This document shows, piece by piece, positions 25,259-47,803 of a DNA stretch of 49,274 bases. The notes beneath the pieces are model-generated. The model was not told where the DNA came from. It did not search any database and worked only from the letters and a program-made list of their open reading frames with translations. Positions within the stretch are counted from its first letter, which is position 1. Every line of letters begins with the position of its first letter. The stretch comes from a bacterium (GTDB lineage Bacteria > Patescibacteriota > Minisyncoccia > Ryanbacterales > GWA2-47-10b): positions 1 to 49,274 of the forward strand of contig JAQBTR010000004.1 of NCBI GenBank assembly GCA_027624915.1, in the 5' to 3' direction. A program made the position numbers and the translations under genes.

Positions 25259-25311
25259 AATTCTATGATTCTTTAATTAAAAAAGGGCGCAGGGCGCTCT
25301 TAATGTTCCCC

Positions 25312-25474
25312 GGGATTGCTTTCAAACTTGCTTTCGTTATTAAAATTCCCAAATTTTGAGCGGAGCGAAGATAAAAATTTTGAACTTAATGCCGTAGGTA
25401 TTGGTAAAAAATTTTTATCAAGCTAGAGCCAAAATTTAGGGATTTTGGTAGAAATGGAGTTTGAAAGTGATCCC
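25312..25474 (+). repeat. Family C long hairpin, copy 1
   Basis: GGGATTGCTTTCAAACT/AGTTTGAAAGTGATCCC outer stem; core TGAACTTAATGCCGTAGGTATTGGT (25381-25405). Confidence 0.75.
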
Positions 25475-31028: not shown

Positions 31029-31185
31029 AGAGGTACTCTAGCAAGTTTCTCCTGCTACCTCAAACCAAAAAACTAAACACACGTCTGAACGGTTTTTGAA
31101 GCTATAAGCTTCAACCTCACAACCGTCCTAAAGACGGTGAGAATGAGTGAAGAGGTAATATTAAGTTTTTTGTTGTACGTGCGTT

Positions 31186-31346
31186 CACCCCACAGACGAA
31201 TATTTAGTCGTAACGAAAGGCACAAATTTCTTGCGAAAAAAGTGAAGGATGAGGAGGTAATATCCAGCGGATATTTTGACGAGGAGTGAGCTTTTTGTAG
31301 CTAAAATTTGAGACTTGCAGTAGACTAGGGATTTGTCTGTGGGGTG
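31186..31346 (+). ncRNA. Family E 161-bp structured element, copy 1 (candidate ncRNA or mini-element)
   Basis: Co-linear with 47643-47803; the 24-bp outer stem overlaps the GtrA stop codon. Confidence 0.6.
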
Positions 31347-31951
31347 TTATCCTTAAAAACTATGAGTTTGTATCCAAAAAAGTTCCAGAAGAGAGACACT
31401 AGAGTTGCCGCTACCTTAGCTACAACCACGAATTGTTGCTGGTTAAAACTATCACGTGGAGCATATTCAATCATCAAAAACAAGATAGCCGTGTTTATTA
31501 CAATACCCATTATGGTGACGGCAACAAAAATCAAAAATTCTTTTCGCGAAGGAGCATCAGTTTCTTTGAATGTCCAACCGCGCTGCCAAAAATAACTATT
31601 TACAATAGCGATTGAAACGGAAATAACATTAAATAACAAAAGCGTTGCGCCATCATACGAAGCATTTGTTGACGTCAAATACGTAAGAATACCTGCATCC
31701 ACCGTAAAGTTCATCAACCCAACGATTGCAAAGCGTCCCATTTGTTTTAACGCAATAATATGTGAGAAGAGACGAGAGGCAATGACATATGCAACATACT
31801 CACCAATTGGTAATACAACAAACAAAGACCAAAGAGGTATAACAAAGCCCCCAAACTCACGAGATATATCGCCATATGTCACCAACAAAGACGCAAAAAA
31901 TGCGGTTACCAAACCGATTATTGCAGCATAGATATAATCTTTTTTAACCAT
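31325..31951 (-). CDS. GtrA-family membrane protein
   Basis: RFAIVGLMNFTVD, NSYFWQRGWTF and WNFFGYKLIVF. Confidence 0.9.
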   Translation of the reverse strand: MVKKDYIYAAIIGLVTAFFASLLVTYGDISREFGGFVIPLWSLFVVLPIGEYVAYVIASRLFSHIIALKQMGRFAIVGLMNFTVDAGILTYLTSTNASYDGATLLLFNVISVSIAIVNSYFWQRGWTFKETDAPSRKEFLIFVAVTIMGIVINTAILFLMIEYAPRDSFNQQQFVVVAKVAATLVSLFWNFFGYKLIVFKDNTPQTNP

Positions 31952-34364
31952 GTTTATATCGTTTCGTAATATCTGCTTCTACCTCTGCTCTATTGCTACC
32001 ATATTTCTTACGTGAACCCTCTATAATTTCTTCCCTTTGGGCTTTGTTACCATCTTCTGGCTTAGGGATAATGATATTAAATGCTTTTGATGTTTGCCCG
32101 TTTATTAATAGCTTAACATATGCATTGCGATTGTTAATGTTCATAAGATCTTGAGCATGAAATACAGGCTCAAACTGCTTCTCCATAAATTCACCGTCCT
32201 CAGATCCTACCCGGAATGCAATCATTGTGCCTACGTTACCAAAGACCGCCTTTCTGATATCATCATCAAGCTGACCCAAAAACTGATGTGCAATCACAAG
32301 ATTGAGCCTATACTTACGAGCTTCTGACAAGATAGTTGATATTGATTTGGTCGTGACATTTTGAAACTCATCTATATAGCAATAGAAGTCGCGTCTGGCG
32401 GCTTCTGCTATATCTGCTCGTGAAAGCGCTCCTATTAATATCTTGCCTACAATTATATGCCCCAAAAGAGCAGCATTAAGCTCGCCCAAGCGCCCCTTGG
32501 ATAGATTTATTAAAAGAATTTTGCCCTGATCCATCACCTCACGAAATCGAATAGTTGAATGTTCTTGCGCAATAATCGGTCGCATAATGTCGTTGGACAA
32601 GAATGTATCGAACTTGGATGTGATATATGGAACCATATTTTGTAAACTTGCCTCACCTCCAGCCTTGGTTGCTATCTTTTCCCAAAAGGTATTGACTACA
32701 ACATTACTTGAACGAGAGAGTTTGTACTTACGAAATTCTTCGTCCACCAAAACCCGCTGTACCTCCAAAAGCGTATTGCCAGATTGTGGGTCCTGCATAA
32801 CAAGCATGGTCGCATTTCGGAAATACTGCTCAAACATTGGCCCACCAGCAACCGACATGTTGTATAGCTTATTAAATATATCGAGAAGCTCATTTACGAT
32901 TGTTGTTTTTTGTTCTGGGTAACGCATATCATACTCCAAAAAATTAAGCCCCATAGGTCGCTCAACATCAGCCGGATTGAAGTAAATTACATCGTCAAAT
33001 CGTTCTTTTGGTACTGTTGCCAAAAGATCCTCTACATCTTGTCCATGTGGATCAATAAAGCAGACACCGCGTCCCGCTTGTATGTCTTGGCGTGCCATTT
33101 CTTTGAGGAGAGTAGATTTACCCGTTCCCGTCTGACCTATGACATACATATGACGGCGGCGATCATCCTCTGTTATATATACATTTTTTTGAGTGCCACG
33201 AAATGTGCTCTCACCAATTTTGAGACCCTGACCCGCAAGCTCAACTGGAGCTGGCGCCTCACGACTCTTGAGATATTGAACATTGGTTTGCGCAAACCCA
33301 GAGTATGGAAAATGAAATAACGTAGCCAACTCTTGCGCAGATGTATAGAGAGAATTACTATTTTTGAAAAGTCTGAATGAAAAATTATATACAAGCTCCT
33401 CAAGCGCCTTTCCACCAACTCGTATAAAACCAAACTGATTGCCTTCTGGATTATCAAATTGGCTAAAAGCCGACTCAAGACCTTGTAGTATAGTACCTGT
33501 TTCTTCTGGTGTTTCTGCTGAGACAAGTATACGAATGTTTACATCAAATGGATTATATGAAGCCTTACCTTCAATTTGGTGTACGAGGTTTTCATCAAAT
33601 GGCTTGTTTGGTTCTGGGTTGTCTGATGCTTTTTTAGGAGACTTGGCAAGTTGTTTTAGTTCTTGCTTGGTTCCGCCAAGTGCTTCTTTGAGAGACTTGC
33701 CACGACGCAAGTCTTGCCCAACGCGCTTACCCTCAACATTGCGAGCGCTTCGTGCTGGACGCATAACAAACTGTATGCTCGCACCATCTCCTGTGTGTTT
33801 CAATTTGGCAAAGGCGCCAGTAATTGCCTCAAGAGGGTCTTTGCTGAGTTCATTATATGTCTTAAGACTTAGTAGATTATTCTTCTTGAGCTTGAGAATT
33901 GAGCCGCCTGTCGTACCTGTTGGATGAAAAATATTGTAGTCATTCGTTTCTTCAACCTTGGCAGAAGGCATAAAGGAGTTTAGTTGATTTGCAAAATAGC
34001 TAGAGAAACGCCTCGGCATAGAAGCATAGAACACTACTTCTTCGCCAACATGCGGCAATGCTACCTCAAACGTAATTGTAGACGCGCCAAACCGCATATC
34101 ATGCCACGGTGTTGTTCTAAGAGGTTCGAGTGAAGAATAAAACTGCTCCATGGCTGCCATAATTTCTTTTGGCTCTTTTTGTTTTGCCTCCCCTGATTCT
34201 GTGTGTTCATTTTTTGGTAACAACACACGATACAATACCGTATCGAGTGCTCCAGATAATTCAAACTTACGTTTTGGCATAACAACCAATACATAAAAAA
34301 GAATAGTAGCCCCAATCGTAAGACCTGCGACACCAAAAAATACTGTTAGTAAAATATCAGCCAT
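31944..34364 (-). CDS. VirB4/TraD/HerA-like P-loop ATPase (T4SS coupling-protein-like) with an N-terminal membrane anchor
   Basis: RRRHMYVIGQTGTGKS, FIDPHG, YIDEFQN and LSEARKYRL. Confidence 0.88.
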   Translation of the reverse strand: MADILLTVFFGVAGLTIGATILFYVLVVMPKRKFELSGALDTVLYRVLLPKNEHTESGEAKQKEPKEIMAAMEQFYSSLEPLRTTPWHDMRFGASTITFEVALPHVGEEVVFYASMPRRFSSYFANQLNSFMPSAKVEETNDYNIFHPTGTTGGSILKLKKNNLLSLKTYNELSKDPLEAITGAFAKLKHTGDGASIQFVMRPARSARNVEGKRVGQDLRRGKSLKEALGGTKQELKQLAKSPKKASDNPEPNKPFDENLVHQIEGKASYNPFDVNIRILVSAETPEETGTILQGLESAFSQFDNPEGNQFGFIRVGGKALEELVYNFSFRLFKNSNSLYTSAQELATLFHFPYSGFAQTNVQYLKSREAPAPVELAGQGLKIGESTFRGTQKNVYITEDDRRRHMYVIGQTGTGKSTLLKEMARQDIQAGRGVCFIDPHGQDVEDLLATVPKERFDDVIYFNPADVERPMGLNFLEYDMRYPEQKTTIVNELLDIFNKLYNMSVAGGPMFEQYFRNATMLVMQDPQSGNTLLEVQRVLVDEEFRKYKLSRSSNVVVNTFWEKIATKAGGEASLQNMVPYITSKFDTFLSNDIMRPIIAQEHSTIRFREVMDQGKILLINLSKGRLGELNAALLGHIIVGKILIGALSRADIAEAARRDFYCYIDEFQNVTTKSISTILSEARKYRLNLVIAHQFLGQLDDDIRKAVFGNVGTMIAFRVGSEDGEFMEKQFEPVFHAQDLMNINNRNAYVKLLINGQTSKAFNIIIPKPEDGNKAQREEIIEGSRKKYGSNRAEVEADITKRYKHG

Positions 34365-34737
34365 TTGACTCTACCTCTAACACACCACGATTCTTCATGT
34401 CGTCGAGAAATTTATCGACAAGTGCATCATGAAATGCATCAATCAAATACGGATTGTGTGTATTTCTAACCTGTTTTGTAGCCTCTACAATTCCATGTGC
34501 AAATGCAGTCTGTACTAAAACAGCAACATCTTTGTCGATTTCGTCATCATCTGGTTTCGTTGGAGGTACTTGTGGTGGTGGTACACTTGACTTGATATTT
34601 TCTGTGTGTTCTTTTATTGATTCGGACACAACTTCTTTTGAACTTTGCCCTGCAACCTCTTTTCTCTTCTCGAGAATTTTCTGTTCGAGGTAATTGATCT
34701 CCTCTTCTGGAGAATTAAAATTTGGTATTTCCGTCAT
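34357..34737 (-). CDS. Hypothetical protein coupled to the ATPase gene
   Basis: NPYLIDAFHDALVD motif; 8-bp overlap with the ATPase gene. Confidence 0.75.
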   Translation of the reverse strand: MTEIPNFNSPEEEINYLEQKILEKRKEVAGQSSKEVVSESIKEHTENIKSSVPPPQVPPTKPDDDEIDKDVAVLVQTAFAHGIVEATKQVRNTHNPYLIDAFHDALVDKFLDDMKNRGVLEVESNG

Positions 34738-34792
34738 ACACAGCCATTATAACAGAATGTTCTCTAATATAGTATAATAACTGGGTATCGTT

Positions 34793-36421
34793 ATGTCGGA
34801 AAAACCACAATATATTCTTCTTGTCATTATCCTGGTTGTTGCAGGATTTTTGCGTCTCTGGCAACTTGGCTATAGTCCAGAAAACCTAGCCCAAAGCCCA
34901 CCTACTCCAGCCTCAATCCCACCCGGACTCTTTTCTGATGAAGCAATGAATGGAAATAATGCATCCGAAGCCCTTGATACGGGTAACTATAAGGTGTTTT
35001 ATCGTGAAAATAATGGCCGTGAGGGGCTCTATATTAATCTCCAGGCCCTTTCACTAAGATTCTTTGGTCATACTGCATTTGCGCTCCGTCTTGTCAGCGC
35101 ACTCTTTGGAATACTATCCATATGGGCCTTGTGGTGGTTTGCTCGCGAATATACAAAAAATGAATGGATAGCACTTGCCTCATCATTCTTTATGGCAACG
35201 AGCTTTTGGCATATTCTTTTTTCGCGTGTTGGTTTTCGTGCAATTATGGCGCCGTTCTTCCTATCGGCGGGTCTTGCCGCTCTTTATTACGGATGGAATA
35301 GAGCTAGCGATGAAACAAAACACTCAAAGATTATTATCATAAGCGCTCTTGGTGGTGTTTTGTTTGGTCTTGGTTTTCATTCCTATATCGCTTACCGAAT
35401 CGCGCCACTCTTGTTAATTCCTATTATTTGGTCATTTATCAAACTAGCCAAAAAATCAAAACACTGTGTACTGTGTATCCCTGCCATTTTTCTTTTATTT
35501 ACATTTATTGCAGGACTCCCACTCGCCTACTACTTCTTACAAAATCCCGGGGACTTTCTTGGACGTACATCACAAATTTCTATAATGAACAGCGATAATC
35601 CGATTGGTGCGTTCTTAATAAATTCTGGTAAAACAATTCAATCATTATATTTTGTTGGAGACTTTAACTGGAGACATAACTATGCAGGATTTCCAGCTCT
35701 TTGGTGGCCGGTAGCCGTATTCTTTACAATTGGTGTTATTGAAGCTGTAAGAAGAAAATACTGGATGTTATTTATTTGGTTTTTTGTGATGCTTTTGCCG
35801 GTAGCCTTTTCATCCGAGGGTGTTCCTCATTCGCTACGCGCAATTATTATGCTACCTCCTATCATGATTATTGCGGGTGTTGGGCTCCAACATGCTTGGA
35901 AACTATTTGCCGATTGGCTCAAACGAATGAAAACAGCTCACACGGAAGCTTCTTCCATCATTTTGCGCATTCAAAAAGCATTGCCTATTCTTGGTCTTGC
36001 TATTTTATTTGCTATATTCCTTTGGAATTTCGACCTCTACTTCCAAAGATGGTCTATCAGACCAGAAGTAAAACTAGCGTTCAACCGTGAAGAGCATCGT
36101 ATCGCTCTATTTCTAAATGAACTCCCAGAAGAGCTCCCAAAGTATGTGCTACTTGATCTTGACGATACCGTAGACCGCACTGGACGCCCAATGAGCATAC
36201 AGCCAATACTATTTGTCACAGATACGTATCTACCACATGCTGAAGGTCATAAGAACATACACTATATAACTCCTTTGGATGTACCAAATATTGATTGCCA
36301 AGAAGATTGTATAGTCATCCCACCAAAAAACACGATACAATCAATGAATCATCTTAAGGAATTCTTTCCTTCTATGAATCTCCAAAAAACAGAAGGTATA
36401 CTTGTCGCAAGGCCTAGGTAA
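34793..36421 (+). CDS. GT-C fold glycosyltransferase (GT39/ArnT-like)
   Basis: PPGLFSDEA acidic dyad in the first loop, WHILFSR and many TM helices. Confidence 0.88.
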   Translation: MSEKPQYILLVIILVVAGFLRLWQLGYSPENLAQSPPTPASIPPGLFSDEAMNGNNASEALDTGNYKVFYRENNGREGLYINLQALSLRFFGHTAFALRLVSALFGILSIWALWWFAREYTKNEWIALASSFFMATSFWHILFSRVGFRAIMAPFFLSAGLAALYYGWNRASDETKHSKIIIISALGGVLFGLGFHSYIAYRIAPLLLIPIIWSFIKLAKKSKHCVLCIPAIFLLFTFIAGLPLAYYFLQNPGDFLGRTSQISIMNSDNPIGAFLINSGKTIQSLYFVGDFNWRHNYAGFPALWWPVAVFFTIGVIEAVRRKYWMLFIWFFVMLLPVAFSSEGVPHSLRAIIMLPPIMIIAGVGLQHAWKLFADWLKRMKTAHTEASSIILRIQKALPILGLAILFAIFLWNFDLYFQRWSIRPEVKLAFNREEHRIALFLNELPEELPKYVLLDLDDTVDRTGRPMSIQPILFVTDTYLPHAEGHKNIHYITPLDVPNIDCQEDCIVIPPKNTIQSMNHLKEFFPSMNLQKTEGILVARPR

Positions 36422-36425
36422 ACAC

Positions 36426-38240
36426 ATGAAAAAAATAACAACAATATTAGCGGGATTCCTCTTCTTCGTTATGTTTGTTCTCGCGTTTTTCTCGTCCTAC
36501 GATGATTCGGTTATATTTGATGAAACCGCACATATCGGCGCTGGATATTCGTATATTACAGAATTTGATATGCGACTCAATCCAGAACATCCACCACTCT
36601 TCAAAGATTTAGCGGCTCTACCATTACTTACACAAAATCTTAACTTCCGAACGGATACCGACGCATGGCAAAACAAAGTAAATGGCCAATGGGATGCTGG
36701 GGGTGGATTAATTTTTGAATACGGTAACGATCCACAGAAAATAATACGTCTCTCTCGTCTACCCATTATGCTCATGAGTGTTTTAGTAGGATTTCTCTTT
36801 TTCTTCTGGGCACGAAGGCACTTTGGTAAACGTGTTGCATTACTTGGTGCGTTCTTCTATGCATTCTCTCCTACCGTTATTGCACACTCCCGTTTTGTCA
36901 CAACTGATATTGCGGCAGCCCTTGGATTTTTGATTGGTATATCAACATTTGTTGATTTTCTTGAAACGCGCTCAAAAAAACATTTAATTGTAGCTGGGCT
37001 CGCATTTGGTATAGCGCAAAGCCTTAAGTTTTCACTTTTCTTATTGGGCCCTATTTCTATCGTGCTTGCAATCCTTTGGGCCTATTCAAACCGAATGGAT
37101 ATAAAGAATTTTGGGAAGCTTGCAGGACAGGTTCTCTTGATCTTTATTATTGGAGCCTTACTTGTATGGCTTATCTATATCCCACATGTCTGGAACTACC
37201 CTCAAGAAAAACAACTCAGTGACGCGAAAACTCTCATCAGTACCTTTAAGGTAAAACCATTTGTTGATCTTGATTTGTGGCTCATCAAAAATGATTTCAC
37301 CCGCCCACTTGGTCATTACTTAATGGGCGTCATGATGGTCACACAGCGAACAGCTGGTGGTAACAGTGCATACTTCTGGGGCGAGGTTTCTGCCGATGGA
37401 TGGCCGCACTACTTCCCAATAGTATACCTACTCAAAGAAACCCTTGGATTTCATATCCTGACGCTCATGGCTCTTGTGCTCGCTTTCTTGCGCATCAAAC
37501 GCAAGAAAGAGCGTGGTAACGCTAGAGATTGGATTCGTAATAACTTTGCGCTCACGGCGACTTTATTCTTTGTTGGATTTTACTGGATTTTGACCATCTT
37601 TAACCCCCTCAACATAGGAATACGACATCTTTTGCCGATTTTTCCTTTTGTCTATATTCTCGTCGCGCGCGAAATTATTATATGGATTTCTGGAGGTGAA
37701 GCCTCTTATGGAAACCTGATGCAAACAATAAAATCTCTGTATAAAAACTTTGTAGCACCTGCTCCAAAAATTATGATTCTTGCGCTCATCATGCTTTGGA
37801 TATCTGGTAGTGTTCTTCTCGCCTTTCCGTTTTATCTTTCATACTATAACGAACTTGCTGGTGGAACGCTCAATGGGTACAAAATTGCGACTGATTCTAA
37901 CTATGATTGGGGTCAAGACCTAAAAAGACTTGCAAATAAACTAGAAATGGACTACCCAGAAGAAGACACTGTATACCTTCACTACTTCGGTGGTAGTTCA
38001 CAAAATAGTGGTGCACAACAATATTACCTAGGCGACAAGTTTAAGGCACACTATTCGAGCTTTGGACCACCACCATCCGGCTCACTCTTTGCTATATCTG
38101 TAAACGAACTCATGGGTCTCTGGGCAACACCAGTCGCCGGCTTCCCAGAACAAGAACCACAAAATAGCTACGAATGGCTCAAACCCTTAGAACCAATCGA
38201 CCGAGGCGGAACTTCAATCTTCATATACCGCATACCATAG
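36426..38240 (+). CDS. GT-C fold glycosyltransferase (GT39/ArnT-like), second paralog; start probably 36426
   Basis: IFDETAHIGAG, NPEHPPL, GIRHLLP and DSNYDWGQDL. Confidence 0.88.
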   Translation: MKKITTILAGFLFFVMFVLAFFSSYDDSVIFDETAHIGAGYSYITEFDMRLNPEHPPLFKDLAALPLLTQNLNFRTDTDAWQNKVNGQWDAGGGLIFEYGNDPQKIIRLSRLPIMLMSVLVGFLFFFWARRHFGKRVALLGAFFYAFSPTVIAHSRFVTTDIAAALGFLIGISTFVDFLETRSKKHLIVAGLAFGIAQSLKFSLFLLGPISIVLAILWAYSNRMDIKNFGKLAGQVLLIFIIGALLVWLIYIPHVWNYPQEKQLSDAKTLISTFKVKPFVDLDLWLIKNDFTRPLGHYLMGVMMVTQRTAGGNSAYFWGEVSADGWPHYFPIVYLLKETLGFHILTLMALVLAFLRIKRKKERGNARDWIRNNFALTATLFFVGFYWILTIFNPLNIGIRHLLPIFPFVYILVAREIIIWISGGEASYGNLMQTIKSLYKNFVAPAPKIMILALIMLWISGSVLLAFPFYLSYYNELAGGTLNGYKIATDSNYDWGQDLKRLANKLEMDYPEEDTVYLHYFGGSSQNSGAQQYYLGDKFKAHYSSFGPPPSGSLFAISVNELMGLWATPVAGFPEQEPQNSYEWLKPLEPIDRGGTSIFIYRIP

Positions 38241-38253
38241 GAGAGACTGACAC

Positions 38254-38395
38254 ATAAAAAGCATGTCAAAGGTTTTATATCATTCTCGCCCAGCCAGCGC
38301 TGGGCTCCGAGGCTTCAGCTCTTTTGCTTTGACTTACATCAAAGACCGTGCCAAAAGAGCCTCAGAACCCATAAAACAATTGACATGCTTTTTAT
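38254..38395. repeat. 142-bp MITE-like branched hairpin with 16-bp perfect terminal inverted repeats
   Basis: ATAAAAAGCATGTCAA (38254-38269) / TTGACATGCTTTTTAT (38380-38395). Confidence 0.7.
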
Positions 38396-38495
38396 TCTTG
38401 ACTGTCATGCTCTCCACACCCACAAAAAAATAGAAAGTAACTTTTGCACTTCTCGCTTGAGCTCCCAGCATCCTACAATCCGCGGTTGTGGTCAC

Positions 38496-38640
38496 TTTTG
38501 ATTGAGCGCTCCAGGTAACCACCACGGCTCCCCATCCCAACAAAAAATCACCCAGAACTATTTTATACTTCCGATTGAGCGGTTTATTTAACCACCTTCA
38601 CGGCAAAGATCGTATAAAAATGGTTCTGGGCGTTTTTTGT
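38496..38640 (+). repeat. Family A structured repeats: degenerate copy 5 and intact copy 4 in tandem
   Basis: TTTTGATTGAGCG (38496) with CGGC (38525); TTCCGATTGAGCG (38569), CGGC (38601) and GATC (38608) inside the 38540-38640 stem. Confidence 0.75.
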
Positions 38641-39453
38641 CTACCTATCGTATTCTATGAACCGATAAAAAATACGGTTACCGAAGCGAAGGTCGATGTA
38701 GTCTAGCTCATCGGCTTTTTCTTTTATTTCGTTGTCGAGGGTGAGTTGCATATTTTTATATGCCTCTTCTGGATCTGTATCCTCTAAGAGTCGAATTTCC
38801 CAACCAGCACGTGTCTCAGCGTGAAGTGTTGCATCCCTAGCATCAATCGCAAACTGCAAACTCTGTAGGTAATCATTCTCTTGCGCTCGTTCGTTAAAGA
38901 ATGTAATAAGTCTCATCATGCGTTGAGACATTTGTTTTTCACCCAGAGTAATCTCACGATCCCGCTCGTCAGTAATTTTAGGAACGATGGTGCCCGCAAA
39001 ATCTGGAGCCGATTGAAAGGCAACACCAGCCCTATCAATCCAATAACAATCCTCTGGTAGTCCCTGACACAAAACTCCCCATCCAGAATATTCTACAACC
39101 TCTACCGCAAGCTCGTGCGGCCAACTTCGTGTAATATGGACATCTTTTATTACAGGCGAGTGAGACTTGATGATGCTCGCGAGCCCATACTTACTCATCC
39201 ACATGATATCTTGTGGTATAACATATAACGCTTTCTCAGTAAGCGTACGCTCCAAAAATGAGCGCACATCATCTTCTTCTAATCTATCTGTCCCCTCAAT
39301 AGATATGGTCTCAATACGAAAATATGGAGAGTATATTAAAAATCCAAATAAACTACCAACAACCAAAAGAATTGGAAGCATCACGTATAAAGACTTAGCG
39401 ACCCTTCGCTTTTTGTGACGCTTGCTTGATGCTCGAAAACTCTTTTTACGCAT
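38641..39453 (-). CDS. FtsQ/DivIB-like POTRA-domain cell division protein
   Basis: Basic N-terminus, TM helix, FRIETISIEG...ITRSWPHELAVEVVE and LDYIDLRFGNRIFY. Confidence 0.8.
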   Translation of the reverse strand: MRKKSFRASSKRHKKRRVAKSLYVMLPILLVVGSLFGFLIYSPYFRIETISIEGTDRLEEDDVRSFLERTLTEKALYVIPQDIMWMSKYGLASIIKSHSPVIKDVHITRSWPHELAVEVVEYSGWGVLCQGLPEDCYWIDRAGVAFQSAPDFAGTIVPKITDERDREITLGEKQMSQRMMRLITFFNERAQENDYLQSLQFAIDARDATLHAETRAGWEIRLLEDTDPEEAYKNMQLTLDNEIKEKADELDYIDLRFGNRIFYRFIEYDR

Positions 39454-39454
39454 C

Positions 39455-40726
39455 TCAAGAAGTTTTACTTGGTATAGTATTAAATCCAGTATATTTCTGA
39501 AGAACTTCTGGTACTTTTATATAACCATCTTGTGTTTGGTATTGTTCAAGAATGTTAATGAGAATACGTGGGGATGCAATTGCTGTATTGTTGAGAGAAT
39601 GGGCAAATCTCATCTTGCCCTCACTATCTTTATACCTAATACCTAATCGTCTTGTTTGAAAATCATGAAAGTATGATGCTGAGTGCGTCTCTCCATATTT
39701 TTGCTGTGAAGGAACCCAGGTTTCTATATCATATTTTTTAACCTGTCCTTGTCCTAAGTCCCCGCCACAATTTAATACAACTCGGTAGTGAAGACCTAAT
39801 TTTTGTAATAGCTCTTCAGCATTAGCCGTTATTTCTTCATGTAAACGAACTGACTCCACGTGATCAGCCCTACATAAGACTACCTGTTCTACCTTCCAAA
39901 ATTCGTGTACACGATAGAGTCCTTTTGTATCTTTGCCGTGTGTGCCAATCTCACGTCTATAACACGCGGAGAAAGCCGCATATTTTTTTGGAAACTCTTC
40001 TTCTTTTAGTATCTCATCACGAAGCATACCCATAGTGGATACCTCTGAAGTACCAACAAGGCTCAAATCATCCTGAGTATGAAAAACGTCTTCTTTACCT
40101 TGTGGAAAATATCCCGTTCCTAAAAAGTTTGCATCTGTTGCAAGTGACGGCGTCGTTAATGCTGTAAATCCTTTTGCCCGAAGCTCTGACATTGCAAACT
40201 GCCACAGAGCCATAGAAAGAATCACTGCCTCATTTTTTAAAAAGTATCCTCTAAATCCAGCTACCTTTGTCCCTCTTTCAAAATCTGCCAAATCCAAGTC
40301 CTTGAGCAAAGTTATGTGGTCTTTGGGATTAGTGATAGCTGGTATGTCACCCACTTTTCGCACCTCAACATTATCAGCATCAGTCTTGCCATCAGGAACT
40401 GATGGGTCAGGAATGTTCGGGACCGCATACATAAGTACTTCAAATTCCTCATTCAGTTTTACGAGCTTTTCTTCACGATTCTTGAGGTCTGACTTAAGTG
40501 AACCTACTTCTTCTATAGATTTCTTTTTTGATTCTTCGTCTTCAATTTTAGCGATTTCAGCAGACGTGGCATTAAGCTGAGCGCGCATTGCCTCAACCTC
40601 AGTCATCGCCTCACGTCTTATCTTATCTAGCTCAACAAGCTTGTCTACATCAAAAACAAGATGCTTTTTGCGAGCAGCATCTCGTACAAGGGTCGGATTT
40701 TCACGGATAAATTTTATGTCCAGCAT
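39455..40726 (-). CDS. serS: Serine--tRNA ligase
   Basis: MLDIKFIRENP, LVGTSEV, YRREIG, RVHEFWKVEQ and HSLNNTAIA. Confidence 0.97.
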   Translation of the reverse strand: MLDIKFIRENPTLVRDAARKKHLVFDVDKLVELDKIRREAMTEVEAMRAQLNATSAEIAKIEDEESKKKSIEEVGSLKSDLKNREEKLVKLNEEFEVLMYAVPNIPDPSVPDGKTDADNVEVRKVGDIPAITNPKDHITLLKDLDLADFERGTKVAGFRGYFLKNEAVILSMALWQFAMSELRAKGFTALTTPSLATDANFLGTGYFPQGKEDVFHTQDDLSLVGTSEVSTMGMLRDEILKEEEFPKKYAAFSACYRREIGTHGKDTKGLYRVHEFWKVEQVVLCRADHVESVRLHEEITANAEELLQKLGLHYRVVLNCGGDLGQGQVKKYDIETWVPSQQKYGETHSASYFHDFQTRRLGIRYKDSEGKMRFAHSLNNTAIASPRILINILEQYQTQDGYIKVPEVLQKYTGFNTIPSKTS

Positions 40727-40763
40727 TCCCTCATTATACCGATTTTAGACCTATTTCCAAATA

Positions 40764-40791
40764 AAAATCCCTCGCTTTCGCGAGGGATTTT
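40764..40791. terminator. Intrinsic terminator
   Basis: AAAATCCCTCGC-TTTC-GCGAGGGATTTT. Confidence 0.8.
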
Positions 40792-40808
40792 CTTAACTCA
40801 AAATTTGT

Positions 40809-41270
40809 TTATTCGACGACCAAATTACCAATCATACCCTGAGCACGATGCGCACCAACACTACAGTAATACTCAAACGTACCTGTTTTGTCGGCAACAA
40901 ATTCTATAGATGTTGTGCCATCATCAACAGCAACTTGTTTTGTTGCTACACCAAATTCATCAATACTCCAGTCATGAAATCCAGAAGTACTCGAGAAATT
41001 AATAACAACTGTATCGCCCTTCTTGACCTTGATCTCGCTCATTGAAAAAGCGAAGTTGCGTCCCGTTACGTCAAAAACTTTCTTTTCACCCCCCTCCATC
41101 ATGGCATCGTCATCTTCCATCATGGCACCGTCGTCATTCATTGCATCATCATCCATTATGGCATCATCTTTGTTCTCCATGGCGTCTGGCGCCTCAGGCG
41201 AACTCGTTGTAAGAAAATAGATACCTCCTACAACCACTACTAATATTATTACCCCTATTAATGCTTTCAT
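40809..41270 (-). CDS. Membrane-anchored cupredoxin with a Met/Asp-rich linker (start moved to 41270)
   Basis: GFHDW and YYCSVGAHRAQGM give the H...C-X4-H-X4-M type-1 copper site. Confidence 0.88.
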   Translation of the reverse strand: MKALIGVIILVVVVGGIYFLTTSSPEAPDAMENKDDAIMDDDAMNDDGAMMEDDDAMMEGGEKKVFDVTGRNFAFSMSEIKVKKGDTVVINFSSTSGFHDWSIDEFGVATKQVAVDDGTTSIEFVADKTGTFEYYCSVGAHRAQGMIGNLVVE

Positions 41271-41346
41271 ACGATGTATTATCTTTATATAAGAAGCATT
41301 AGTCAACCAATACGAGTGTACAAAAAAGAGCACCCTTGTGGGGGTG

Positions 41347-41925
41347 CTACGCAACCATATTTTTTGTTTGTCCTAATTCGGTATCTAATGAAACGCCAGC
41401 AATAAACGGATGACGCAGTGTACGTTCTACTGCACGATACTCTGTTGTATACGGAAGCTCATCAATACGATGGAGCTCAACCATTCCTCGTTTTTCTGGG
41501 TTGGTACTAGCTACCGTTACCAGCTGTGACGTTGGATAGTTTTGTGTATCGTATACGATTCCAACATGTCTTGTAGCATTGGGTCCGATTGAACGCGACC
41601 TTACATATATAACAACATCGCCAAATGTGTATGGCATATCAGGATTTTTTTCTACCCATCCGCTCCAATTACAAAGATCTCTCTCAAGGCCATCTACGGT
41701 GAGATGCAGGGTCTGGCATGCTCGGACGTCCTTGCCACGAGGCCTCGGTTCCAAGACAATGGGAATCAAAACACTTGAAACAAAGAGGGCGCATTTGCGC
41801 AAGCCATTACCGGTCTGTTCTCGAACATCTCCCCTCTCGAGTCCGAAGACGTGTGGAGGGGCAATAGCTGATCTCGCATACATGTCAATCCAAGCGCGAA
41901 GGTTCTCATTTGGGAGAAGCTGCAT
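41347..41925 (-). CDS. Hypothetical protein with an NlpC/P60-like Cys-His pair
   Basis: KCALFVSSVL, FGDVVIY and RHVGIVY. Confidence 0.55.
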   Translation of the reverse strand: MQLLPNENLRAWIDMYARSAIAPPHVFGLERGDVREQTGNGLRKCALFVSSVLIPIVLEPRPRGKDVRACQTLHLTVDGLERDLCNWSGWVEKNPDMPYTFGDVVIYVRSRSIGPNATRHVGIVYDTQNYPTSQLVTVASTNPEKRGMVELHRIDELPYTTEYRAVERTLRHPFIAGVSLDTELGQTKNMVA

Positions 41926-41980
41926 AGCTAAAAACCTCCATTATTTTCTAGACGCACTATACACTAAAAATTGGATTGAT

Positions 41981-42802
41981 TCAACCCTCCTCGGTACACT
42001 GAATCAACTCAAGAGCCCCGTAGAGTCCTCCTATGTCACCGAGTTCAGCTAGCTTAAGCTCGGGTGTTTTAGGAAAAATCTTTACTAATTTATTTAGCTT
42101 ATCTTTAACTAAATCCATTGGAACATGTGGTGCCATTCCACCACCCAATACAATACATTCTGGAGACCAGAGAACAACAATGTTATTAAGGGCAGACGCA
42201 AGATGATTACAAATCTCATCCCATAACTTTGGGTCATCAATTTCTGATGCTCTCAATCCATATTTTTCTTTGAGCACCGTTCCTGAAATAAGTGACTCAA
42301 TTGTTCTTGGCTCACCATTTATTAGATCAACAATTTGGTGACCAGCCTCAAAGCCCAGATATGCGTGATCAGGCCTTCCGTCTACAATGCGAGCACCACC
42401 AACTCCAGTACTTATTGTTATATATGCAACTATACGGCAACCTCTACCTGCGCCTCGAACAGCCTCACCAACACCGACAACAACAGCATCATTTTCTAAA
42501 CGTACTGGCGCGTCAAGCTTTTCTGAAATATCATGCTTTAATTGTCTGCCAACCCAGTCAGGAAGATTGGGTGCATTAACTAAGCCATCATGATTTGGAT
42601 CAAGGGGTCCTGGAACTCCACCAGTTATTGTCTCTATCTTTTCACCAATTGCGATCTGTTTTGCAGTTCCTGTAAGGAGTGTCACTCCTTCGTCATAACG
42701 CTCTGGAGTACTCAGAATAATAGGATCCGCCGAAAACGTATGACAGTCTTTACTTCCTGCAACACGCATGTGTGACCCTCCAATATCAAAAAGTATGTGC
42801 AT
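41981..42802 (-). CDS. ROK-family sugar kinase
   Basis: FDIGGS, GVPGP, LENDA, ISTGVGG and EAGHQ. Confidence 0.92.
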   Translation of the reverse strand: MHILFDIGGSHMRVAGSKDCHTFSADPIILSTPERYDEGVTLLTGTAKQIAIGEKIETITGGVPGPLDPNHDGLVNAPNLPDWVGRQLKHDISEKLDAPVRLENDAVVVGVGEAVRGAGRGCRIVAYITISTGVGGARIVDGRPDHAYLGFEAGHQIVDLINGEPRTIESLISGTVLKEKYGLRASEIDDPKLWDEICNHLASALNNIVVLWSPECIVLGGGMAPHVPMDLVKDKLNKLVKIFPKTPELKLAELGDIGGLYGALELIQCTEEG

Positions 42803-42817
42803 TTAAAATAATAAACT

Positions 42818-42981
42818 GGTGTATAAATGAAAATTTGCTTTCGAAGCGACGATTTTATGATTTTTGCGAAGCGGAGTCAAAAAATATGAACTTAATGCCA
42901 GAGGTATTGGTGAGTATTTTTTGACAAACTGCAGCAAAATCATAGAATCTTGAGCTGAAATGATATTTTTAATTATACACC
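42818..42981 (+). repeat. Family C long hairpin, copy 2
   Basis: Core TGAACTTAATGCCAGAGGTATTGGT (42887-42911), 23/25 identical to copy 1; the outer stem includes the CBS gene's GGTGTATAA end. Confidence 0.75.
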
Positions 42982-43446
42982 CAGCAGTCTTATTGGCTTG
43001 AGGACATCAAACCTACTCACAACACCTACAACTTTTTTGTCTTCATCTATAACAGGAATTGGATTTACGCGGTGGTGGTCCCTAAATGCCGAAACCGTCT
43101 CCTCATAACTTGCATTTGGCATGAGTGTGAGTGGGTCGGGGTTCATAACATCGACCGATTTCAAATTAGCGATTTCTTTTACATCTTTCTGAAAATCCTT
43201 CGAGGACCCGTGTGATGTTTTTAACTGTCCCAGGATTTGTTGAAATGTTGGCAGGTGAATTGCCGAACCCTTACCAATCAAATCATATTCGGTAAGAATC
43301 CCAACAAGCGCGCCAGAACTATCCAAAACTGGCATACCATCAATACCATGTTCTGCAAGAAGTATAGCGGCCTCACTGATAGGAGTGTCTTCTTGCACCG
43401 TGATTACTTCCTTTGTCATTATGTCGCTAACTGTAACGTTTTCCAT
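42973..43446 (-). CDS. CBS-pair domain protein
   Basis: VSDIMTKEVIT...GMPVLD...GILTEYDL, then a second CBS motif. Confidence 0.92.
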   Translation of the reverse strand: MENVTVSDIMTKEVITVQEDTPISEAAILLAEHGIDGMPVLDSSGALVGILTEYDLIGKGSAIHLPTFQQILGQLKTSHGSSKDFQKDVKEIANLKSVDVMNPDPLTLMPNASYEETVSAFRDHHRVNPIPVIDEDKKVVGVVSRFDVLKPIRLLGV

Positions 43447-43456
43447 AAAAATTTAT

Positions 43457-45091
43457 TTAATCAGAACTGTAACAGAATGCGCCAACATCATCAGCACACT
43501 GCAAGCCAAAGATAATACCATCATCATCAAATTCTAAAGAGGGGTTGCCCTTGTCTTCCATATATGCTCGAACTACATAACCTTTCCCATCTCGTGATAC
43601 ATAATCATATTGATTGTCCCCCGGGTCTTCAGGAAGTACGTCTATAAACGTAGGTGTTAACTCGCCTGCCAAATTTGACCATCTCACAGATGAAGAGCTG
43701 CCGCTATGTAGCGGGAAGGAGCCGTTACTGTCGTAATAAAGTTCAAGAGCTAGGCGAACCCTAGCAATATCACCAGCGCGCTGAGCGTCCCGGCCTTTCT
43801 CACTCGCACTCCCAAATACTGTCGAAGAATCCTGACGTGCTGAGTCAAAAAATTCATCAAATGTTTTTGATTCCTCTGGTGCTTGTATATTGAGCTCTTT
43901 ATTAAAACTGGTGTAGGTGACATCAGATCGAATAGTATATTTAATCCCACCCTCAGTCGGGCTAAGCGCGTCTGGATCGTCTCCATACAGATCTTTGAAA
44001 TTTAAGTCTACACTTATATCTGTAGAGACTCGCAATGGTAACACCTTTGACTTATCTATCCATATTTCCATGGAATTAATGTGTATTGCATCAATAATTT
44101 TCTCTTGTAGTAAAATGGCGTCTGGGTCCTGTTCAAGAAGAGCGCTCTCCTCGTACACAAGTTCCATGAGTTCTTTATATAAACCCTTTAAAGCATCCTT
44201 ATCAAGCTCAATGGAGTAGTGAAATGCTCCTCTGGAACCAACGGCATCACTACCAAGACGATTCACTGACTTAATAAGATTGTATTTCTGGACAAGCTCT
44301 ATGGCATCAATATTGAAACTTGGAATATCGTTTGGTGTTATACCGAGAGCTTCTCCTCCCTCAAGGTCAGTAATATCCAGACGAATCCAACTATCCTCGA
44401 TGCTGTCAAATCCAAAAATATCAAAGATACTTGGTAAATCTAATTGCATATACACCATCTCTCCCATTCCTATGAGTGACACTCCGCCTGAGGTTGCAAA
44501 TTGAAAATCATCACTACCCATTTTTGCATCTACCTTACCATTCATAGTGTAGGCAATATTTTCTTGGTCGTGTCTATCGTATGAACCATCCATGTTTATT
44601 GAAAATGTTCCTGGGCCATAGAGAGATTCGAGACCTAATGAATCGCTAGAGGTCTCTTCGTCACCAGGATTATATTCAAACTCAACATTTACAGTCCCTT
44701 GATATTCCATCGAATCCACCTTGGACAAATTAATTAAAGCTTCTGTTACAAGACTTTCTGGACTCTTTAGATAGTCGGTATAAAAATATCCATAACCTGC
44801 GGCAGCACTTGTTGCCAATAGTAGCAAAACTATTACTAAAAGTATCTTGCTTTTATTACCACTTGAGTTTGAGTGTGTTGTTGACTGTTGTGAACTAGGA
44901 ACACCGAGTGGTGGCGCTATTGGTGGAGGTGCTGCAGGAGATGGTGTTACTGGTGGTGGCACTACTGGCGGAGGTACAACAGGAGGTAGTGACACTGGTG
45001 GAGGTAAAGATGTTTTCTGACCTTCATTACCAGTATCTGGCTGCAAAACATTACTCTGACCGATTTGTGCTCGGTATGGATCTTGGTTCAT
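43457..45091 (-). CDS. Membrane protein: Pro-rich N-terminus, TM helix, beta-rich domain, C-terminal pilin (GspG-like) head
   Basis: PPPV repeats; KGRDAQRAGDI..VRLALELYYDSNGSFP...LPEDP...YDY. Confidence 0.75.
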   Translation of the reverse strand: MNQDPYRAQIGQSNVLQPDTGNEGQKTSLPPPVSLPPVVPPPVVPPPVTPSPAAPPPIAPPLGVPSSQQSTTHSNSSGNKSKILLVIVLLLLATSAAAGYGYFYTDYLKSPESLVTEALINLSKVDSMEYQGTVNVEFEYNPGDEETSSDSLGLESLYGPGTFSINMDGSYDRHDQENIAYTMNGKVDAKMGSDDFQFATSGGVSLIGMGEMVYMQLDLPSIFDIFGFDSIEDSWIRLDITDLEGGEALGITPNDIPSFNIDAIELVQKYNLIKSVNRLGSDAVGSRGAFHYSIELDKDALKGLYKELMELVYEESALLEQDPDAILLQEKIIDAIHINSMEIWIDKSKVLPLRVSTDISVDLNFKDLYGDDPDALSPTEGGIKYTIRSDVTYTSFNKELNIQAPEESKTFDEFFDSARQDSSTVFGSASEKGRDAQRAGDIARVRLALELYYDSNGSFPLHSGSSSSVRWSNLAGELTPTFIDVLPEDPGDNQYDYVSRDGKGYVVRAYMEDKGNPSLEFDDDGIIFGLQCADDVGAFCYSSD

Positions 45092-45125
45092 AAATCTTAT
45101 TTCATCGATTCGATAATAATATTAT

Positions 45126-45263
45126 CTATAGTGTACCGCGCTGTACTCCCTCCATACAACCTATAGTCATGCGAAACGCTTTAAGGCTCCATATAGCAGT
45201 AATAAAAAGAAGGCTAAAAGTTGCGAGTCCAAAAATATCAAAAAAATCTGCTAAATAGTTCAT
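45126..45263 (-). CDS. Possible 45-aa hydrophobic ORF (MNYLADFFDIFGLATFSLLFITAIWSLK...)
   Basis: Manual translation; may be a gene remnant. Confidence 0.25.
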   Translation of the reverse strand: MNYLADFFDIFGLATFSLLFITAIWSLKAFRMTIGCMEGVQRGTL

Positions 45264-45319
45264 AGATTTATTATAAAGGCTTGTCTATAATAAGAAAACC
45301 TGTTATAGTCTTTACTTAC

Positions 45320-45390
45320 GGGCCTGTAGTTTAGTGGTAAAACGACCCCCTTGCACGGGGTAGCTCGGAGTTCGATTCTCCGCAGGTCCA
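45320..45390 (+). tRNA. tRNA-Ala (anticodon UGC), CCA not encoded
   Basis: GGGCCTG/CAGGTCC acceptor with G3:U70, ACCCC-CTTGCAC-GGGGT anticodon arm, TTCGATT T loop. Confidence 0.96.
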
Positions 45391-45589
45391 CAAAAATAAG
45401 AAACCGAAAGCACTGCTTTTGATGATTATATTTTTGTAGGATTTGCGGAGAATCGAAAGGCGGAGGCGGTATACAAGACGAAGCTTTGCTGAGTGTTTGT
45501 CGCCGAGCCAGGGTCGTGAGCGTATCATTGTAAGGAGCGTGGCGACTATACAATGAATGACTCCTGACCGGTTCCCGCAGGTCCACAAA
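45380..45589 (+). mobile_element. tRNA-Ala-linked mini-element bounded by 15-bp direct repeats of the tRNA 3' end
   Basis: CCGCAGGTCCACAAA at 45380-45394 and 45575-45589; inverted copy of the T arm at 45445-45457. Confidence 0.6.
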
Positions 45590-45675
45590 TAAAAATATCC
45601 ACCTTTCTGGTGGATGTTTTTATTTGCATGATTTGGAGAAAATATTGAACTCAAGAAAGAGACCGAAAAAATATT

Positions 45676-46638
45676 TTAGAAGGGTTCGACTAGTTTTTGT
45701 ACTGGATAGTAGTCGGGATCAATGGCCCGTTTGAAACAAACACCTCCTGCGTTGTGATCCCAATTTGTCTGAACACCATAGTTCGTTTGAGCAATTCTTG
45801 GCAATTGATCATTTATAGTTGATATTTTAAATTCAGCACATAATTCAAATGAATTTTCACCGAGTACTCTATATATGTATGGTTCTTGTGTGACGGGATC
45901 TACTGGTAACTCAATTCCTCGAATATCATCTACAAGATTGTTAAGAGATTCTGGAACCTCTCCTTTTTGTTGCCAGTATCGAACAATTTGATCTTGAATA
46001 TTTGATAAATCATTTACTCGTTGCTGGTCAAATCGTCGTTCTCGTTGTGATTGAGGGAGACCTACCATCCAGAATCCCCATATAAGGGTTAGGCTGACAA
46101 TTAAAACAACCGTACTCTCAAATACTTTCATACGAGCATCTTGCCACGCAGGAGTCTCTTTTTTAAGATTCCAGCCATAGTAGAGTGTTACTGAACCGCC
46201 GATTACAAGAATGGCGATAGCCTTAAGCAAAAACGATGTCGTCAGATCTCCATTCAAAAAACCAAAAACAACAGCTACAAGATCACCAATTAGCACAATA
46301 AGTGTGGCAAAAAGTGTAAGATATAAAAGCCATTTGCGACTTTTCATATCCCGCTTAAATGAGTGCGCCGTTAAATCTCGTCCGAGGTACCGCTGAAGTA
46401 ATAAAAAAATTGGAAATACAATTACTAATATAGCCAGTGGCCAGCGCAATACATCTGCTGGTGTTTGCCATGAATATCTTTGTTCAAGTACATCGGGAAC
46501 ATACACGCTAATCATTGTAAAGATTATCGCGCCAAAACTAAACACAACGGTATACAGCCCAATGACACCAAGGAGGTGTGTAAAAACATCTTTTGGTCCT
46601 GCGTGTGCATCTACTAATTGCTGTGGTTGTTCATTCAT
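45676..46638 (-). CDS. DUF5671-type membrane protein with a C-terminal pilin-like head
   Basis: LRWPLAILVIVFP, RKWLLYLTLF and GFLNGDLT; then RFDQQRVNDLSNIQ...DPVTQEPYIY...FELCAEF. Confidence 0.75.
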   Translation of the reverse strand: MNEQPQQLVDAHAGPKDVFTHLLGVIGLYTVVFSFGAIIFTMISVYVPDVLEQRYSWQTPADVLRWPLAILVIVFPIFLLLQRYLGRDLTAHSFKRDMKSRKWLLYLTLFATLIVLIGDLVAVVFGFLNGDLTTSFLLKAIAILVIGGSVTLYYGWNLKKETPAWQDARMKVFESTVVLIVSLTLIWGFWMVGLPQSQRERRFDQQRVNDLSNIQDQIVRYWQQKGEVPESLNNLVDDIRGIELPVDPVTQEPYIYRVLGENSFELCAEFKISTINDQLPRIAQTNYGVQTNWDHNAGGVCFKRAIDPDYYPVQKLVEPF

Positions 46639-46657
46639 ATGATGATCCTAGTTTTTA

Positions 46658-47632
46658 TTATTTTGCTAACCTTATAAGATGCATTACCAAATCTGGAAAT
46701 TCTAAACCTCTATGTTGTGCCGCCTTTGGGAACAACGACTCGCGTGTTAACCCAGGTAATGTATTTACTTCAAGAACATAAAGTTCTGGAGCTCTACGTG
46801 TTATGCTGGATGGCTTAATTATCATGTCAGTTCGTGAGTAGTGTCGCAACCCAAGCGCCTCGTGCGCCTTGAGTGCTGTTTCCTGAATCTTGGCAAGCAT
46901 GGCTCCATAAAATGGTGCGGGGCAAACCTCGGTTGTCTTGCCATTATACTTAACTTTGTAGTCAAAAAAATCTGCACTTTCTGGTGGGACTATTTCTATG
47001 GGAGTTAGTGCTGATATTATCCTACCATCTAGCCCTTCAATGACGCCACACGTGACTTCGCGACCAGGAATAAACTCCTGAATAATGAGATGCGAATCGG
47101 TCTCCAATGCACTCTCAAACGCACCGGGCAGGTGTTCACGATTTGAGGCCTTTGTAACCCCCAGAGATGAGCCTCTGGAGCGTGGTTTTATAATCCATGG
47201 TGGTGCCGAATGCGCTAATGCAAGTCTGGGTTCTGCTACGTCACGAGCAAGAACGAGACTTTTTGGCATCTTAATACCAACGCCCTCAAGTACTTTTTGT
47301 GACATTTCCTTATTCATAGCCATAGCGGATGCAAGCGCGCCAGAACCCGTAAACGGCATTTGATTGTGCTCTAGAATACGCTGTATTTTTCCATCCTCTC
47401 CATATTCGCCATGCAGTGCATTAAACATTACGTCCACCTTGTGGCATGCATCCCCAGGCATAATGAGTCTTTGTTCATCTCCGAAGAGCCAGCTCCCTGC
47501 TTTCGTTATAAAAATTGGATATGCTTCAACTCGTCCTTTTAGTGCACGAAGTACATTCATGCCAGACATAAGTGACACGTCATGCTCACTCGATGGTCCA
47601 CCCATTAATACGCCAACGCGAGGAATATTCAT
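46658..47632 (-). CDS. ddl: D-alanine--D-alanine ligase
   Basis: GGPSSEHDVSLMSG, LHGEYGEDG, GSSLG, FFDYKVKY and LEVNTLPG. Confidence 0.95.
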   Translation of the reverse strand: MNIPRVGVLMGGPSSEHDVSLMSGMNVLRALKGRVEAYPIFITKAGSWLFGDEQRLIMPGDACHKVDVMFNALHGEYGEDGKIQRILEHNQMPFTGSGALASAMAMNKEMSQKVLEGVGIKMPKSLVLARDVAEPRLALAHSAPPWIIKPRSRGSSLGVTKASNREHLPGAFESALETDSHLIIQEFIPGREVTCGVIEGLDGRIISALTPIEIVPPESADFFDYKVKYNGKTTEVCPAPFYGAMLAKIQETALKAHEALGLRHYSRTDMIIKPSSITRRAPELYVLEVNTLPGLTRESLFPKAAQHRGLEFPDLVMHLIRLAK

Positions 47633-47642
47633 ATTATTGAGG

Positions 47643-47803
47643 AGTCCTGAGAAATAATTTGATTTCGTTGCGAGATGGTTTTATCTTGAGCGAAAACAAT
47701 GAAGCACGAAGAGGTAGTATACGGAGTATACGCCGATGAGTGATGAGTTGTTTGTAGCCAAGATAAATTCATCGCAGTAGGAAACAAATTATTGATCGGG
47801 ACT
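47643..47803 (+). ncRNA. Family E 161-bp structured element, copy 2
   Basis: Co-linear with 31186-31346; the outer stem overlaps the stop codon at 47789. Confidence 0.6.

Follow-up and report, generated by a model that had tools for sequence, protein, structure and literature searches.

A family of single-strand-folding ~150-base elements inserted between housekeeping genes of ultra-small bacteria

The 49,274-nucleotide stretch analyzed here (the window; contig JAQBTR010000004.1 of assembly GCA_027624915.1, from a patescibacterium of the Ryanbacterales lineage) carries two elements, E1 and E2, that are members of an uncatalogued, dispersed and lineage-restricted family. Members of the family, ~150 bases long, sit as insertions between the housekeeping genes of a small number of ultra-small bacteria, and selection maintains a long rod-like fold in one strand of the element, the purine-rich one. 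The family is tentatively read, at a probability of roughly 0.45, as a palindromic element of the ERIC, Rickettsia palindromic element (RPE) or REPIN kind that is non-autonomous, spreads horizontally and would act as a single strand. Between an RNA gene and a mobile mini-element, the evidence from genomic context leans toward a mobile origin.

E1 occupies positions 31186–31346 of the window (+ strand) between a GtrA-like gene and dnaX, and E2 occupies positions 47643–47803 (+ strand) between a hypothetical gene and ddl. Each is a 161-nt rod with a type-A apical module and is antisense to both of its neighbors. A sequence-only reading of the window had described the two as gapless, co-linear elements that share motifs at identical offsets and have swapped stems that still pair, and this description held in each part. 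The gapless identity of E1 and E2 is 88/161, compared with 43.2 ± 5.5 for 2000 shuffles, the maximum of which was 63. The shared motifs are all found at the same 0-based offsets: CGTnnCGA at +23, GCGAAAA at +47, TGAAG..GAGGTARTAT at +57, TGTAGC at +110 and GCAGTAG at +131. The swapped helices are AATATCC/GGATATT versus GTATAC/GTATAC and AAATTT/AAATTT versus TTTATCTTG/CAAGATAAA, with different letters and intact pairing. The covariance model R1 described below scores E1 at 123 bits and E2 at 140 bits, and the folding energies (ΔG) of the sense and antisense strands are −58 and −43 for E1 and −66 and −44 for E2.

The conserved motifs face one another across the rod. In the basal domain of E1, the 5′ loop motif TCGTAACGA (31208–31216, +) faces the 3′ loop motif GCAGTAG (31317–31323, +), and GCGAAAA (31233–31239, +) faces its partner TTTGTAGC (31294–31301, +) with a GAA/GUA signature similar to that of loop E. 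The same arrangement is observed on the + strand of E2, where TCGTTGCGA (47665–47673) faces GCAGTAG (47774–47780) and GCGAAAA (47690–47696) faces TTTGTAGC (47751–47758). The basal 5′ loop motif is kept in most copies of all module types and is diverged in locus L041, E3 and E4. The apical type-A module, read from the alignment (columns 47–94), spans + strand positions 31243–31290 in E1 and 47700–47747 in E2 and consists of UGAAG/UGAG, a three-pair stretch, GARGA/GAYGA and a terminal hairpin.

Family members are multi-loop rods of ~140–170 nt with a G+C content of 31–38%. RNAalifold folds E1 and E2 together into one extended hairpin with 53 pairs, and compensatory changes are present in 22 of these. 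When a hand-drawn structure is applied to a seven-sequence alignment of the cores, 90.9% of the cells pair and 25 of the 46 pairs show compensating changes; sliding the 3′ partners by 1–3 columns lowers the pairing to 34–45%. A 12-member alignment, which was fitted with the model and leans toward the structure used for the fitting, gives 92.4% paired cells, compensating changes in 37 of the 46 pairs and 31–46% pairing with slid partners. The covariation, drawn from 7–12 sequences of which three are 92–93% identical and therefore from a limited number of independent events, is strong and specific to the pairing register. It supports the earlier proposal of a selected single-stranded RNA or DNA (ssDNA) fold or mini-element.

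The folding strand is distinguished from its complement by two measures. Across the seven sequences, G-U cells outnumber A-C cells by 35 to 8. The + strand, on which the G-T wobbles had been placed at the outset, has an advantage over the − strand of 15–18 kcal/mol in folding. For each of the 11 copies compared, the sense (purine-rich) strand has the lower folding energy, by 7–34 kcal/mol, and this difference holds with RNA and DNA parameters alike. Together, the G-U excess and the folding energies identify the purine-rich strand as the folding strand. In the window this is the + strand, and the genes on either side are encoded on the opposite strand. The + strand is also the richer in C, so that replication-associated C-to-T bias would produce the reverse asymmetry here.

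The family extends beyond E1 and E2. Exact-pattern scans of public genomes and metagenomes yielded at least five further distinct members, at loci L035 (identical to L092), L041 (identical to L098), L080, L083 and L097. The covariance model R1, whose E-values are rough, was built from the seven cores and detects two more intergenic copies on the + strand of the window, so that the two copies first noticed are both real but the window holds four. E3 (25312–25474; core 25324–25463, 42 bits, E 7e-8; ΔG −70 sense versus −48 antisense) lies between an HI0933-like flavoprotein gene and an ABC-F gene. E4 (42817–42984; core 42831–42969, 48 bits, E 2.5e-9; ΔG −62 versus −41) lies between a CBS-domain gene and a ROK kinase gene. 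Both are diverged and carry a type-B apical module. R1 also picks up second and third copies in L080 and L097, and in a specificity control it finds no match in 632 kb of unrelated loci. Coverage of the source genome is ~58 kb (source scaffold, 83 kb) and that of the other loci is 2–8 kb each; an 8.4-kb extension of the source scaffold contains no further copy.

All members have a common basal domain of the form TTTCGTnnCGAAA … GAGCGAAAA / GCCAAAAT … TTGCAGTAGnAA, whose loops are UCGUnnCGA/GCAGUAG and the loop-E-like GCGAAAA/UUUGUAGC. The apex is one of several modules: type A in E1, E2, L035, L041, L080a, L083 and L097a, type B in E3 and E4, type C in L080b and L097b, and a short type D in the third copy of L097 (25–138). 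The center of type A is a continuous stack of U-R and R-Y closing pairs, G•A/A•G and an A-U pair, followed by a 3-bp co-varying helix that is replaced in E1 by tandem G•A. Above this helix, the stack continues through G•A/A•G, a co-varying R-Y pair and a further G•A/A•G to the terminal hairpin. The type-A apex contains three tandem G•A motifs with UGA/GA-type purine pairs. The likeness of the GAA opposite GUA to the loop E/sarcin-ricin module had been pointed out earlier and is observed here at the sequence level. GCGAA/UGUAGC (GUGAA in L035) is present in 6/7 type-A copies; L041 has GCAGC, and the dominant variant in the metagenomic run X9 restores GUAGC.

The conserved apical blocks can also be read as small-peptide genes (frames MKxEEV... 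and ..SELFVAK..) in which pairing would be secondary, a reading to which we give almost no weight. The ELFVAKI codons of E1 and E2 do differ at synonymous sites only, and RTG AAG nnn GAR GAG GTA is present in 7/7 type-A copies, but the ELFVAK frame is interrupted by an in-frame TGA in L080, L083 and L097. The MKxEEV frame ends at differing places, 5 to 18 codons in, and a 1-nt indel in L097 puts it out of register. Furthermore, changes at the variable 'codon' and at the R of GAR are matched by changes in the bases that they pair with (columns 52–54/87–89 and 57/84), and no Shine-Dalgarno sequence is found upstream of RTG. The in-frame TGA, variable stops and frameshifting indel among members also led to rejection of a small-protein gene or type I toxin.

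At L097 (853–1189) and L080 (1917–2254), one type-C and one type-A element are joined head to head in a 338-bp dimer, an arrangement that is not found in the window. The two dimers are 91% identical at loci with unrelated flanks, which supports recent duplication, and a monomer at a third locus of the same metagenome is 93–95% identical. The L080, L083 and L097 copies share the termini TAGACCTGYTG/CARCAGRTCTA. In keeping with a patchy distribution, E2 is nearer to these copies of another organism (70–73%) than to E1 (59%), and E1 is closest (66%) to L035, which comes from a marine metagenome-assembled genome (MAG) labelled Bdellovibrionales. The L041 element lies at 3978–4127 of its locus, and the groundwater runs X8–X10 and X13 hold many dispersed copies that are at least 80% alike and continue into unrelated sequence. 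In run X9, the depth of L041-like copies is ~330, versus 20–77 on the adjacent rplL. In the dominant X9 variant, three pairs of the apical stem have compensatory changes on both sides (G•A, U•G and A-U to A-U, G-C and G-C) and GAGAGAUA stands in place of GAGGUA, so the exact-pattern scans under-count the family.

A solo fragment, GTGAAGAGGTAATAT, is located in the dnaX upstream region (31144–31161, +), ~100 nt upstream of the corresponding motif in E1 itself. It corresponds to the apical 5′-strand motif of E1 minus 6 nt and shares an exact 10-mer with it; the local alignment is not significant. The fragment is possibly the remnant of an older copy.

The positions of the copies among genes indicate insertion. 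The four window copies lie 5–12 kb apart, at GtrA/dnaX, hypothetical/ddl, flavoprotein/ABC-F and CBS/ROK junctions, and copies elsewhere lie at rplJ/rplL (L041) and khpA-like/trmD (L035) junctions, all of unrelated housekeeping genes. In four relatives with Ddl proteins 65–70% identical to that of the source, the gene upstream of ddl ends 0–3 nt from the ddl start or overlaps it, and at this junction the source has a gap of 156 nt, which E2 fills. Two related genomes have no element in the GtrA-dnaX spacer, which contains a 98-aa open reading frame (ORF) or a ParE-type toxin-antitoxin pair instead. A search with R1, with filters off, of ~145 kb from seven other Patescibacteria genomes gave no copy. 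These three observations support insertion. The ddl junction that is tight in the relatives and the dimer repeated between unrelated flanks are the signs of mobility that the sequence-only reading had named as a test, and further copies were found in the window and in other organisms; none of its refuting outcomes that were checked was observed. At the site of E3, synteny is not kept in the loci fetched.

E2 is flanked by an 8-bp direct repeat, ATTATTGA (47633–47640 and 47788–47795), which is a possible target-site duplication and is reached by 7 of 300 shuffles. If E2 is removed along with one ATTATTGA copy, the sequence becomes ...CAA TAA T ATG, which matches the tight arrangement of stop and start codons in the relatives. 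The source sample yielded no empty-site allele of E2 (single contig, no joints).

Two features of these loci stand apart from the elements themselves. The GtrA-dnaX spacer is a variable hot spot (L001 9664–9960, L004 9504–9997 and window 31029–31324, the last with E1). For the gene upstream of ddl, the source has two predicted ORFs of 143 and 502 aa (L102 7933–9844, window ~47789–49700), where the relatives have a single gene of 560–778 aa; the split may be a frameshift or an assembly difference.

In E1, E2 and E4, the outermost 8–20 nt of the stem coincide with the final codons and stop of the upstream minus-strand gene; in E1, the GtrA-like ORF is extended by eight codons and a stop (DNTPQTNP*; 31325–31351, −) in the 3′ arm, and its homologues end in ...IVF(K/R)E*. 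Of the eight stand-alone copies, six run antisense to their neighboring genes, and in five of these six (E1, E2, E4, L041 and L083) the 3′ arm includes the neighbor's stop codon; L035 and L097a are in the sense orientation. In the outermost stem of E2 (47643–47650/47796–47803) and E4 (42817–42827/42973–42984), the end of the upstream gene pairs with a mirrored sequence 10–15 nt before the next start, and the mirrored sequence of E2 contains the sole AGGA upstream of ddl. Two explanations are considered: the ORFs may extend into the element, or the coding arm may have served as the source or the model for the other arm. The antisense and stop-codon placement may reflect where and how insertions are tolerated among overlapping genes.

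The overlap with gene ends could alternatively mean that the element acts in cis in the operon mRNA through its minus-strand copy, which would stabilize or process the upstream 3′ end or rejoin the stop and start codons and thereby restore translational coupling. The stop codons in the 3′ arm, the E2 and E4 arms close to the next start and the AGGA of E2 are in line with such a role, and the minus-strand copy also folds well (z −3.9 and −6.0). A G+C-rich, terminator-like hairpin with a T run is located between E3 and the ABC-F gene (25275–25300, minus strand), which would place the E3 complement in the 3′ untranslated region of the flavoprotein gene. However, selection is on the other strand by both the G-U/A-C count and the folding energies, L035 and L097a are in sense, and the rod base is 53–157 nt from the next start codon in E1, E3 and L041. 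The conserved loops would also read as pyrimidine-rich sequences with no known role in the minus-strand copy. We consider a cis role improbable.

The preferred reading, a palindromic element acting as a single strand, would account for the distribution of conserved and variable parts. The single-stranded form, either an RNA copy or ssDNA, would be the substrate of a trans-acting protein that reads the conserved basal loops, and the apical module would be dispensable cargo. Recognition of the basal loops in a single strand would conserve the loops while the stems co-vary and would leave the apical part swappable. Insertions would survive mostly just after stop codons, and when they are oriented so that the operon mRNA receives the weaker, complementary hairpin.

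Several observations weigh against this reading. Conserved purine-rich non-canonical loops are commoner in protein-binding RNAs than in DNA repeats. The termini of the four window copies are unrelated to one another, and a flanking direct repeat above chance is seen only at E2 and at none of the ten other copies. No candidate mobilizing gene (transposase, reverse transcriptase or other) is seen among the annotated neighbors of any copy. By GC skew, the strand that folds in the window serves as template for the leading strand, whereas single-strand transposons of the IS200/IS605 type follow the opposite rule. The source metagenome contains no second contig at least 80% like E2, which indicates that the window copies (mutually 45–64% identical) are old and diverged yet structurally intact. 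For old, intact copies, in-place selection such as that on an RNA gene is no worse an explanation than selfish spread.

These last points are the best support for a multi-copy family of independently transcribed small noncoding RNAs, in which the basal domain would be a protein-binding handle and the apices would be specificities. Such a family, perhaps acquired horizontally and now kept by the host, is the main rival, a possible reading but a less probable one than a mobile element. The strong, strand-specific covariation, the conserved purine-rich loops and the lack of close paralogues in the sample are consistent with it, as are the sub-lineages common to different organisms and the L035 element, which is in sense and followed by an intrinsic-terminator-like hairpin. 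No sigma-70-like promoter or intrinsic terminator was found around E1 and E2, however, and E2 and E4 take up all of the space between co-directional genes and extend over a stop codon, so that no place is left for transcription signals. The head-to-head dimers, with 5′ ends only a few nucleotides apart, and the absence of the family from close relatives also speak against independent RNA genes.

The nearest known systems are palindromic repeats. ERIC or IRU elements of Enterobacteria are ~127-bp imperfect palindromes with a long hairpin that are intergenic within transcription units, contain internal insertions and reportedly keep their structure by compensation. By description, with sequences not compared, the present elements resemble ERIC in length, long-hairpin form and dispersed intergenic copies, but they have exchangeable apical modules and few, very diverged copies in the source genome. 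RPEs are 100–150-nt selfish palindromic repeats of a reduced genome, restricted to Rickettsia and often in frame within genes. Like RPEs, the present elements are tolerated at gene ends, where ORFs read into E1, E2 and E4; unlike RPEs, which are mentioned in PMC10969869, their copies all lie between genes or at the ends of genes, and the family spans genomes with different phylum-level labels. As in ERIC and RPEs, imperfect palindromes of 100–170 nt occur in several dispersed copies with presence/absence differences between related genomes.

REP sequences and REPINs, which are mobilized by RAYT tyrosine transposases, are 20–40-bp G+C-rich hairpins with an unpaired GTAG/CGTC tag at one end (PMC3733652, PMC3116915). 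The present elements are similar in that they are single-strand hairpins without target duplication, lie after coding regions between co-directional genes and form inverted dimers as a unit (L080 and L097). They differ in being 140–170-nt A+T-rich multi-loop rods with GTAG only inside the internal loop motif GCAGTAG, and no RAYT gene is present among the annotated neighbors in the ~58 kb of source genome or the 2–8 kb of the other loci. Miniature inverted-repeat transposable elements, or MITEs, are short, noncoding, multi-copy, intergenic derivatives of DDE insertion sequences (PMC10969869, PMC11602168). The short, noncoding, multi-copy, intergenic character recalls MITEs. The copies of one organism (L080, L083 and L097) have common termini and E1–E4 have unrelated ones, with no known parent insertion sequence. 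Covariation with G-U asymmetry reflects single-strand selection, which is unneeded for recognition of terminal inverted repeats on duplex DNA. A classical MITE was rejected because a consistent target-site duplication is absent. The family is set apart from ERIC, RPE and REPIN by its conserved non-canonical purine loops, its swappable apices, the lack of a target duplication or known mobilizing gene and its Patescibacteria host.

A more novel reading is a new class of modular structured RNA or ssDNA elements of ultra-small bacteria, in which a protein-binding handle is combined with interchangeable apices and which moves between genomes into the junctions of coupled genes, or else a regulatory RNA family kept by the host; we regard this proposal as rather doubtful. 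In such a class, insertion would proceed without target duplication, perhaps through pairing of the outer arms with the target, which is hinted at by the E2 and E4 arms that mirror the end of the adjacent gene. Patescibacteria have ~1-Mb genomes with overlapping genes and very little noncoding DNA. Toleration of a 150-nt element between coupled essential genes (dnaX, ddl, rplJ-rplL and khpA-trmD) of such compact genomes, with a fold kept by dozens of compensating changes, suggests either an effective parasite with single-strand mobility or an unrecognized RNA function. The family provides a clean new example of palindromic repeats that keep their structure. Its alignment and covariance model are a handle for a family census and a search for partner proteins, and the stacked G•A and loop-E motifs are a good structural target.

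Established RNA and DNA families do not account for the elements. In line with the failure of the sequence-only reading to match them to a known family, Rfam 15 identifies only two tRNAs in the window at gathering thresholds, and scans of the E1 and E2 loci at E ≤ 10 give only chance-level scores of 10–14 bits. dnaX, upstream of which E1 lies, is the classical neighbor of the signal recognition particle (SRP) RNA gene, and the elements resemble 6S and SRP RNAs as 150–190-nt rods with conserved internal loops. Both RNAs were rejected: the GNRA loop and the domain-IV motif are absent, neither of the Rfam 6S and SRP models gives a score, E1 is on the strand opposite to dnaX, the window contains four copies and relatives have none. 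A riboswitch or gene-specific leader is incompatible with the unrelated neighbors (dnaX, ddl, ABC-F, ROK, rplJ/rplL and khpA/trmD) and the antisense orientation of most copies, and a syntenically conserved element is incompatible with the element-free GtrA-dnaX and x-ddl junctions of the relatives. By inspection, integron attC sites were rejected because the boundaries lack GTTRRRY and the copies are 5–12 kb apart between housekeeping genes, and a canonical k-turn or C/D box was rejected because the defining features are absent, with no 3-nt bulge. Searches of phage and plasmid collections with blastn gave no match, and 17 pattern matches in viral contigs are all chance occurrences in coding sequence. 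Among the RNA-seq runs searched, none contains any of the copies.

The pattern scans also returned chance matches in Clostridia and Bacteroidota MAGs (L025 7414–7438, L053, L074 and L046). These belong to an unrelated purine-rich hairpin, in which GAAAAAAGTGAAGAGTGAAGAGGTAATAGTGAA pairs with an upstream TTCACTATTAC; it adjoins a terminator or a tRNA and has no match to R1. Elsewhere in the window, a 225-aa ORF (29197–29874, −) is located between dnaX and tRNA-Gln. It has a weak HTH_23 match and, by eye, a LAGLIDADG-like 'LYWAEGSK' motif, and may be a free-standing homing-endonuclease-like gene.

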